Positions 1 through 3,000 of a stretch of DNA of 64,000 bases are shown piece by piece. Position 1 is the first letter of the stretch. The number at the start of each line of letters is the position of its first letter. The DNA is taken from NCBI RefSeq assembly GCF_003991155.1, contig NZ_CP031295.1, one strand, 5' to 3'. The position numbers are program-made. This DNA comes from Escherichia coli. Its GTDB lineage: Bacteria; Pseudomonadota; Gammaproteobacteria; Enterobacterales; Enterobacteriaceae.

Positions 1-3000
1 TGCGCTGGTCTTCTTGTATCGCACTGTCTTGTTACGGCCTCTGCAGCTCGAGATGAAATTTACGCGCAGCCAGCGCCCTCCCAAACTGCCAACTGTTTTG
101 ACGCAAAGTGAAGTCCGAGCCTTGTTGCTGGCTATGCCAGTTCATCTTCGTCTCTTGGCGCAACTGATGTATGGCAGCGGACTCAGGCTGATGGAGGTGA
201 TGCGCCTGTGCGTGCAGGATATCGACTTCAACTACCTCTGCCTGATGGTCTGGAATGGCAAAGGGGGCAAGCACAGGCGTGTGACTCTGGCCTCGGAACT
301 CATTCCGGCCCTGCGGGAGCAAATTGCCTACGTCCAGCGCTTTTATATGACGGACTGCTTAAACGACGCGTATGCCGGGGTGGCCTTGCCGACGGCATTG
401 GCGCGCAAGTATCCGGCTGCCAGCAAAGAGCTGGGTTGGCACTACCTGTTTCCGGCATCCCATCTGAGTCGCGATCCTGTCGATGGGGCCTTGCGTCGAC
501 ATCATCTGGATCCAACTACCCTGCAAAAAGCGGTTCGAGCCACGGCGCGTCAGCTACAGCTGGGAAAACCGGTCACCTGTCATACCTTGCGCCATTCCTT
601 TGCCACCCATTTGCTGGCGCGGGGGGCGGATATTCGAACCGTGCAGGAGCAACTGGGCCATTCTGATGTTCGAACCACACAAATTTATACCCATGTGCTG
701 CAAAACGGCGCCAATGGGGTACGTAGCCCTTTGTCTGATCTGTAATGGTTGGGGGGCGGGACGCTCGGTTTTTCAGAACGAGTGGCCTGACGCAGGCACG
801 CTACCGCCCTTAGGTTACAGCTCCTAGAGGCTGACATCCGTTTCAGGTGGTGGCTTGTTACCCGGGCCATTTTCATCCTGATGGCCTGTTCTTTTCGTCA
901 AACTATGCTACGGATTTCAGTTTCATATGGAAATAAATAATCGACGGGATTTGCAAAAATGTGCGATAGACAGGGAAGGTGCGAACAAGTTCCTGATATG
1001 AGATCATCATGTTCATCCGGAGCGCATCCCAGAGGGACATCATGAGCCATCAACTCACCTTCGCCGATAGTGAATTCAGCACTAAGCGCCGTCAGACCCG
1101 AAAATAGATTTTCCTCTCCCGCATGGATCAGATTCTGCCATGGCAAAACATGGTGGAAGTCATCGAGCCGTTTTATCCCAAGGCGGGCAATGGCCGACGG
1201 CCCTATCCGCTGGAGACCATGCTGCGTATTCACTGCATGCAGCATTGGTACAACCTGAGCGACGGTGCCATGGAAGATGCCCTGTACGAAATCGCCTCCA
1301 TGCGCCTGTTTGCCCGATTATCCCTGGATAGCGCCCTGCCGGATCGCACCACCATCATGAATTTCCGCCACCTGCTCGAGCAGCATCAACTGGCCCGTCA
1401 ATTGTTCAAGACCATCAATCGCTGGCTGGCCGAAGCAGGCGTCATGATGACCCAAGGCACTTTGGTGGATGCCACCATCATTGAGGCACCCAGCTCTACC
1501 AAGAACAAAGAGCAGTAACGCGATCCGGAGATGCATCAGACCAAGAAAGGCAATCAGTGGCACTTTGGCATGAAGGCCCACATTGGTGTCGATGCCAAGA
1601 GTGGCCTGACCCACAGTTTGGTTACCACCGCGGCCAACGAGCATGACCTCAATCAGCTGGGTAATCTGCTGCATGGAGAGGAGCAATTTGTCTCAGGCGA
1701 TGCCGGATACCAAGGCGCGCCCCAACGCGAAGAGCTGGCCGAGGTGGATGTGGACTGGCTGATCGCCGAGCGACCCGGCAAGGTAAGAACCTTGAAACAG
1801 CACCCACGCAAGAACAAAACAGCCATCAACATCGAATACATGAAGGCGAGCATCCGGGCCAAAGTGGAACATCCGTTTCGCATCATCAAGCAGCAGTTCG
1901 GCTTCGTGAAAGCCAGATACAAGGGGTTGCTGAAAAACGATAACCAACTGGCGATGTTATTCACCCTGGCCAACCTGTTTAGGGTGGACCAAATGATACG
2001 TCAGTGGGAGAGATCTCAGTAAAAACCGGAAATAACGCCAGAAATGGCGGAAAAAATAGCCTAAATAGGCTGATTCGATGTGTTTGCGGGAAAAAAATCG
2101 GCCCAGATCCGCGAAATTTTAATCAGCGAGTCAGCTTGGGAAGAAATGACCTGCTTATTCGCACCTTCCCTAAATCGTCGTGCCACTTACGCCAGTCTTT
2201 ATTGAGCTTATCTTTTTTACCGCCTTCTTCGGCTTTTACAGGTGCCTGGTCGACGTTCATCACCACTTCAACGGCATCAAAGCCGAGTTTGTCACCCAAC
2301 AAGTAGTACATCTGCACGCAGGCATCGCGGTCGTACACCACTACCATGCCTTTCATTGTCGCCCTGGAGGTGCGAGAGCAGGCTATACAGCAGGCGATCG
2401 AGGCCGCGCTAGCGCACCAGCCAGTTGATCCCCCCCGCCCCAAGAGCTGGCGCGTGCTGCGCCCGCTCCGGCCACGCCTGAACCGCCCCGCCTTCGGCGG
2501 AGCCGTTAGGGCGCGGCACCAAATGGGCTGAAATGCGGCGTTCGGGTATCAAAACGAACGAACCAGGAGAGGCGGATTTTAGCCACTAAAATCCGCCAGA
2601 AAACGTCGCGAACTTTCAGGGCTTTTGGGGGGCATTTGGCAGGGTTTCGCATGCGAAAATCGACGTTTCGTGGTGATCTGGGGAGGAAGAGGGTTTTGCG
2701 CATGCGCAAAAGTGCCTATTTAACATATTGCCTGTATGACGCAGTAGGAATATGCAAAAAATGCATATACGAAACCGCATGAGGATTTTTATGGTGATGT
2801 TGTCTAAATTGGACGCTGATGCCGCTAGCAATATACGAGATCAGCATGACTACGAACGAGCGCTGGCGTTAATTGATGAACTGTTCGACTGGTATCGCTC
2901 GTTGGGAGGATCGTTCGCCGGAATTCGACGAATTCAACAAAATGGTGCGAAACATAGAGACCCAGGAGAAGTCACCATGAAAATTTTGGGTGGGTTCTGC

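Follow-up and report, generated by a model that had tools for sequence, protein, structure and literature searches.

Results

Genetic context and boundaries of the element

The window (the whole 64-kb stretch of Escherichia coli DNA that was analysed) opens with the 3' part (1-745, plus strand) of a gene for a 323-aa integron integrase that is not of class 1 (WP_032482493.1). The full-length protein, annotated as 'integron integrase', scored 446.7 bits on TIGR02249, and in every record inspected its gene lay upstream of the insertion sequence (IS) copy that is the subject of this work. This IS copy occupies positions 974-2169 on the plus strand. Its right end is abutted by a gene fragment (2171-2356, minus strand) that has neither its N- nor its C-terminus and is annotated by PGAP as a pseudogene; the fragment had no Pfam or NCBIfam match, and in a tblastn search of PLSDB it occurred solely within the same module. 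The fragment is followed by an Xre/MbcA/ParS antitoxin-like gene and a TnAs1 remnant, and the module as a whole is embedded in resistance regions with tet(M), sul3, tet(A), floR and IS26.

The IS copy is a full-length IS5-family element of 1196 bp, which is the length of the annotated intact ISKpn26 copies. Both 16-bp terminal repeats are present: the left one, GGAAGGTGCGAACAAG, at 974-989 (plus strand), and the right one, GGAAGGTGCGAATAAG, at 2154-2169 (minus strand; the reverse complement is found at the site), each the same as the corresponding end of intact ISKpn26. The two repeats agree at 15 of 16 positions, and the terminal-repeat pattern had two matches in the 64-kb window, both at the ends of the element, with a chance expectation of 0.09. 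The intact ends and full length claimed for this copy in the initial annotation were thus borne out.

BLAST searches of PLSDB and of 5,426 complete E. coli genomes assigned the element to the IS5/ISKpn26 group. Across all 1196 bp it was 96.5-97.4% identical to copies with the annotation 'IS5-like element ISKpn26 family transposase' (97.3-97.4% over the full length for annotated ISKpn26), and about 91% identical to those annotated as 'IS5-like element IS5 family transposase', so that by DNA identity its nearest relative is ISKpn26, not IS5. By the ISfinder convention, isoforms share roughly more than 95% nucleotide or more than 98% amino-acid identity. Judged against RefSeq-annotated copies rather than the ISfinder reference, the element is at the level of an ISKpn26 isoform, with 97.3-97.4% identity in DNA and 98.8% in the restored protein (4 missense differences in 326 residues relative to L005, an intact ISKpn26). 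Of the features expected of the IS5 family, a DDE transposase of the IS5 type (after restoration of the two interrupted codons, see below) and terminal repeats of about 16 bp beginning with GGAAGG were found; a 4-bp duplication at a YTAR site and an uninterrupted transposase ORF were not. The missing duplication belongs to the later history of the copy and is no argument against its membership in the IS5 family.

The transposase frame is interrupted by two nonsense codons

The transposase frame (1042-2022, plus strand) comprises 326 codons and is interrupted twice. Translation of 1042-2022 showed that a TAG at 1105-1107 (codon 22) and a TAA at 1516-1518 (codon 159, inside the DDE domain), both on the plus strand, are in frame with the ATG at 1042, confirming that the single transposase frame is broken at the two places where the initial annotation had put the breaks. 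In the alignment intact ISKpn26 (L005) and IS5 (L006) both read GAG (Glu) at codon 22, with G at 1105, and CAA (Gln) at codon 159, with C at 1516. The first stop corresponds to a G to T and the second to a C to T substitution, and by this alignment each is a one-base change from a sense codon, as the initial annotation had suggested by comparison with IS5. Chance plays no part in this reading: the frame shares 97% identity with genes for intact transposases, and no more than 3.9% of the possible single substitutions in it give a stop.

When the two codons were restored, the protein scored 363.6 bits on the NCBIfam model NF033581, 'IS5 family transposase' (cut-off 140), and matched Pfam DUF772 with residues 51-124 and DDE_Tnp_1 with residues 138-312 (122 bits). 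Candidate catalytic residues, picked by motif, are Asp143 (LVDAT), Asp220 (DAGY) and Glu276 (VEHPF); the assignment rests on the published IS4/IS5 signature D..D(1)GY..R(3)E(6)K, which we take to identify the triad at the level of motif, not of structure. The second stop lies between these residues, with Asp143 upstream and Asp220 and Glu276 downstream. Two ORFs remain on the plus strand: one of 131 aa (1123-1518), encoding the DUF772 N-terminal domain and candidate Asp143, whose exact product has been called on 333 contigs, and one of 163 aa (1531-2022), encoding most of DDE_Tnp_1 with candidates Asp220 and Glu276, whose exact product is indexed in 799 contig-collection blocks. On this assignment the second stop cuts Asp143 off from its two partners, which leaves the copy unable to move autonomously; the identity of the catalytic residues and the loss of transposase activity are both what we infer from the sequence. 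RefSeq/PGAP already labels the feature as a pseudogene ('IS5 family transposase; internal stop'), and in this respect the finding is known and ordinary.

The in-frame ATGs that follow soon after each stop (1123 and 1531) make termination-reinitiation conceivable, and a split frame, read either by programmed read-through or as a multi-ORF transposase, might then still yield a functional enzyme. The initial annotation had allowed for such an arrangement being native, should reference elements of the family share these codons. No reference IS5 or ISKpn26 copy has them: their genes are single intact ORFs annotated as 326-aa transposases, which contradicts a split native to the family. Moreover, the candidate catalytic residues would be separated, no Shine-Dalgarno sequence could be read at a workable distance from either ATG, and the copy is without sign of mobility (see below). 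A functional split transposase is thus extremely unlikely.

The double-stop copy is fixed at a single locus

Among the 5,426 complete E. coli genomes, the element was found by BLAST with 100% identity in 25 records and with 99.9% identity in one more, in which the sole difference, at 1731, leaves both stops in place. In PLSDB 57 plasmids carried it at an identity of at least 99%, with hosts belonging to Escherichia, Salmonella, Shigella and Enterobacter, and 30 of 30 among the matches listed were 100% identical. One JGI metagenome contig contained the same module with both stops.

These data bear on the possibility, raised in the initial annotation, that the stops are sequencing or assembly errors in a gene that is really intact. 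The few draft assemblies in which one or both codons are in the sense state (described below) would fit such errors, but these variants are rare and come from short contigs, where a co-resident ISKpn26 could have mixed the consensus. Against errors stands the 100% identical double-stop sequence in many independent complete assemblies, which come from different laboratories, hosts and countries, and its recurrence in the metagenome contig; substitution errors would not repeat identically. There is practically no chance that the explanation lies here: the stops are not sequencing errors.

The copy is fixed in a widely disseminated plasmid module, and it occupies one locus there. When the IS was searched together with 500 bp on each side, both flanks were present in 27 complete E. 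coli records, to be compared with 26 full-length copies of at least 99.9% identity; the two sets were not paired record by record, and all copies with inspected flanks were at this locus. The 163-aa product (799 blocks) had the same neighbours in 10 of 10 places among those listed. No second insertion site for the double-stop copy was found in any record examined. Nor did any record examined show the copy dispersed over several sites with a target duplication at each; the variant contexts were truncations or, in one case, a recombinant. The truncated derivatives of the locus are cut by IS26, TnAs1 or IS110-family elements. Records containing the left flank alone proved to be truncated versions of the module, with an internal deletion reaching to the TnAs1 end (L115) or with a cut by IS26 at 1054 (L116).

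Sequence variants of the locus

Look-ups by exact sequence found the two stops at this locus in all four possible combinations. Three E. coli draft assemblies (L018-L020; GCA_958336185.1, GCA_047290825.1 and GCA_047290735.1) differ from the copy only by C at 1516 and have stop 1 only, and a Logan assembly (L021; SRR31115696) differs only by G at 1105 and has stop 2 only. Such variants, differing at one site, may represent true intermediates, conversions or artefacts of the consensus. In a further assembly (L007; GCA_023243815.1) neither stop is present: it has seven differences and encodes an intact 326-aa protein, WP_248787877.1. Since rare drafts carry only stop 1, only stop 2 or neither, the double-stop state is not universal, and a functional version may exist at this locus.

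The intact variant was considered as an ancestor of the double-stop copy. All seven of its differences fall within 1011-1671 and all are toward ISKpn26. Its non-stop coding differences, four in number, are without exception synonymous (P about 0.003 if neutral), and at 1011 it carries A, whereas G is found in the left-junction lineage, to which independent mcr-4.3 plasmids (L104) belong. On these three grounds ancestry is disfavoured. We read the variant instead as a patchwork, which could have been produced by gene conversion from a co-resident ISKpn26 or by chimeric assembly of short reads.

Mosaic structure of the element

Measured against ISKpn26, the element differs at 3 positions in the segment 974-1515 but at 28 in 1516-2169, an uneven distribution (Fisher p = 3e-5). 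The differences mark out a divergent 3' block (1617-2051, plus strand) that is about 6% away from both ISKpn26 and IS5 and differs mostly at third codon positions. Over the whole coding sequence 20 of the 28 differences from ISKpn26 are at third codon positions (chi-square p = 1e-4), and the codon differences comprise 22 synonymous, 4 missense and 2 nonsense changes. This predominance of synonymous changes shows that the lineage was under purifying selection until recently.

When the 3' block alone (1600-2060) was compared with PLSDB, other IS copies were at most 94.4% identical, a figure that sets aside this copy (59 records of at least 99% identity) and four PLSDB records at 95-99%; ISKpn26 and IS5 were about equally far from it. 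The element is, by these comparisons, a mosaic, not ISKpn26 plus two point mutations, and is best described as a mosaic ISKpn26 isoform. Its 3' block derives from a third lineage of the IS5 family, shaped by purifying selection, on whose time scale the nonsense mutations are recent. No intact member of this third lineage was found in the collections searched (PLSDB and metagenomes). A metagenome scan for the 3' block combined with CAA at codon 159 gave no match, and a scan for the 3' block alone returned one contig, which carries the same double-stop module.

Flanking sequences and exchange between IS copies

The left end of the IS is adjoined by sequence ending in ...GTGCGATAGACAG, and the right end by CTAAATCGTCGTGCC. 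The four nucleotides bordering the element on the left are ACAG (970-973), which is non-canonical with respect to YTAR and has no match on the right; the same junction occurs in mcr-4.3 ColE plasmids. Those on the right are CTAA (2170-2173), a canonical IS5/ISKpn26 target, CTAA and TTAA being duplicated at simple insertions. The 4-bp target duplication that the initial annotation had reported missing is indeed absent. To serve as controls, chromosomal ISKpn26/IS5 insertions interrupting genes were chosen, because rearranged plasmid copies are poor controls: in one plasmid with six IS5-family matches two were ISKpn26 copies with these ends, and both were without duplication. Since four of the five chromosomal insertions sampled have perfect 4-bp duplications (CTAA, TTAA, TTAA and CTAA), a duplication is the expectation for a simple insertion.

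Two other contexts throw light on how the duplication might have been lost. The mcr-4.3 ColE plasmids (L104) contain a fragment of the locus, corresponding to 429-1829 of the window and lying between IS26 and an IS110-family insertion. Its left junction is the same as here; the IS body is IS5-like from 1224 up to its truncation at 1829, and both codons are in the sense state, GAG (codon 22) and CAA (codon 159). In an E. coli plasmid (L004) the right junction and stop 2 are those of the copy studied here, while an EAL-domain gene forms the left flank and the 5' end is that of a different ISKpn26 variant. Because bodies and flanks are swapped in these two contexts, homologous recombination or gene conversion between IS5-family copies does occur here. 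The missing duplication would then stem from a rearrangement. Exchange between IS5-family copies is the preferred explanation and may account for the unmatched flanks; the alternative is an adjacent left-side deletion, transposase-mediated and ending at the left tip of the element. Neither recombination nor deletion fully predicts the non-canonical ACAG. An empty site was sought with the joined flanks as query, and no PLSDB record spanned the junction. The pre-insertion sequence was not found either: in 100,044 species genomes the closest relatives of the integrase lose similarity at the integrase stop codon.

The flanks are also informative about whether the copy, defective in cis, could still be moved by transposase supplied in trans from an intact ISKpn26 or IS5 that recognises its intact repeats. 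The terminal repeats are the same at both ends as in intact ISKpn26, and ISKpn26 and IS5 are very common in the same hosts, 2890 of the 5426 complete E. coli genomes having a match. Yet every full-length copy examined was at one locus with the same flanks, and no copy with its own target duplication was encountered. The other inspected left-junction contexts (L115, L116 and L104) are truncated forms of the module, and in the plasmid with the new left flank (L004) the 5' sequence differs as well, pointing to recombination rather than transposition. In spite of the identity of its ends with those of ISKpn26, there is no evidence for mobilisation of the copy in trans, and we regard such mobility as very unlikely. 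The initial annotation, in which the copy was called probably non-autonomous, is therefore supported and can be refined: with no sign of trans mobilisation, 'non-autonomous' should better be read as 'dead relic'.

Discussion

The copy is very probably a pseudogenised, non-autonomous member of the IS5 family, a relic that is carried along passively in a multidrug-resistance region of enterobacterial plasmids. In the envisaged mechanism, two point mutations, TAG for GAG at codon 22 and TAA for CAA at codon 159, would end translation early, and restarts at the in-frame ATGs at 1123 and 1531 would produce separate pieces of 131 and 163 aa, between which the candidate catalytic residues would be split, so that no working DDE transposase could be made. 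The mutations predate the spread of the module, since one and the same sequence is found in plasmids from Escherichia, Salmonella, Shigella and Enterobacter. The copy would have persisted by hitch-hiking with the neighbouring resistance genes (the tet(M), sul3, tet(A) and floR regions), and at most it would act as a homology patch for recombination.

It is also conceivable that the double-nonsense copy has been kept as something useful. The 131-aa DUF772 fragment, produced by reinitiation at the ATG at 1123 and having no complete catalytic core, might bind the terminal repeats of ISKpn26 and IS5 and act as a trans-dominant inhibitor of their transposition. If true, the fragment would stabilise the multidrug-resistance plasmids carrying the copy. 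We consider a role of this kind very unlikely, and hold to the interpretation of the copy as a passive relic.

No description of this IS copy was found by full-text searching or in the paper on the mcr-4.3 plasmid (PMC7825325). As a routine IS pseudogene that is already annotated, the copy in itself matters little. It can be of use in two respects. The double-stop sequence and the two junctions make a handy marker for tracing one resistance module, consisting of the integron integrase gene, the dead IS, the antitoxin-like gene and the TnAs1 remnant, across plasmids of E. coli, Salmonella, Shigella, Enterobacter and Klebsiella. In addition, the locus is a clear case of IS5-family copies exchanging sequence, and calls for caution in typing IS elements from short-read assemblies.

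Comparison with known elements

The closest known system is ISKpn26 (IS5 family, IS5 group), with which the copy shares the length of 1196 bp, both terminal repeats and, on the right, the canonical CTAA flank. The DNA identity of 97.3-97.4% overall rises to 99.4% over 974-1515, and the restored transposase is 4-6 residues away from those of the three closest intact copies (L005, L108 and L109). The copy differs from ISKpn26 in its two nonsense codons, in the absence of a 4-bp target duplication, and in the 3' block (1617-2051), which has diverged by about 6% and cannot be assigned to either ISKpn26 or IS5. Furthermore, ISKpn26 is dispersed and present in multiple copies, whereas the element studied here is confined to a single fixed locus.

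IS5 of E. coli K-12, with its insH transposase, belongs to the same family and is organised alike, with terminal repeats of 16 bp, one DDE transposase of 326 aa and YTAR as its target; its DNA is 91% identical. It is, however, 1195 bp long, and about 100 nucleotide and 7 missense differences separate the two elements besides the two stops. Finally, the copy resembles the decayed IS copies (IS pseudogenes and truncated remnants) of plasmid resistance regions in its inactivation by point mutation, in its retention by hitch-hiking and in providing a homology patch for recombination; apart from its full length and perfect ends, nothing distinguishes it from them.

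Genetic context of the dead IS copy and its relatives

In resistance plasmids, the dead IS copy (window 974-2169) always lies directly downstream of an integron integrase gene that is not of class 1. The window carries part of this gene (1-745), and the full gene, coding for 323 amino acids, is found at 347-1318 of L007 (GCA_023243815.1, an assembly in which the locus has neither stop codon); the product matched TIGR02249 with 446.7 bits. When 100,044 species genomes were compared, the nearest relative of the integrase was found in an Aeromonadaceae MAG (93% at the amino acid level in the best segment and 77% at the nucleotide level), and the likeness between the two genes ends at the stop codon.

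A 1.4-kb segment of the same locus is present in small mcr-4.3 ColE plasmids of Enterobacter kobei, Hafnia and E. coli (L104, NZ_CP059482.1, 3356-4756, corresponding to window 429-1829). The segment, which is bordered by IS26 and by an IS110-family element, consists of the 3' end of the integrase gene, the identical left junction and an IS, the body of which resembles IS5 from position 1224 onward. The mcr-4.3 plasmid copy and the window copy have in common a G at window position 1011, where ISKpn26 has A and IS5 has T, and this shared base therefore serves as a marker of the left-junction lineage. It creates an in-frame ATG (1009-1011) located 11 codons 5' of the normal transposase start.

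Variation of the two stop codons

In draft assemblies (L007 and L018-L021) the locus was found with stop 1 alone (TAG, 1105-1107), with stop 2 alone (TAA, 1516-1518) or with neither, thus all four stop combinations exist. Such a pattern suggests that the locus has undergone gene conversion with ISKpn26 or that short-read consensus sequences were mixed, and RefSeq protein WP_248787877.1 may be a patchwork of such origin. A hybrid IS copy is located at 3001-4196 of the E. coli plasmid L004 (NZ_CP100982.1). In its right part, stop 2 included, and in its right flank it does not differ from the window; at its left end, 185 bp or more derive from a different ISKpn26 variant, and an EAL-domain gene forms the left flank.

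Right flank and comparison with intact ISKpn26 copies

The right IS end is abutted by a gene fragment on the minus strand (2171-2356), which had no match in Pfam or NCBIfam and whose tblastn matches in PLSDB were all within the dead-IS module. Farther to the right, an orphan gene for an Xre/MbcA/ParS-type antitoxin C-terminal domain (3205-3402, minus strand, 26.6 bits) adjoins a divergent 135-aa ORF (3464-3871, plus strand) without a family match, and the two may represent a cassette or what remains of a toxin-antitoxin pair.

Two intact ISKpn26 copies are carried by the Citrobacter plasmid L106 (NZ_AP022397.1), one at 31531-32726 and the other on the minus strand with its CDS at 6779-7759. 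Target duplication is absent at both (CTAG and CTAA on the left, AAAG and CTTT on the right), which suggests that rearrangement has taken place between the two copies, as at the dead-IS locus.
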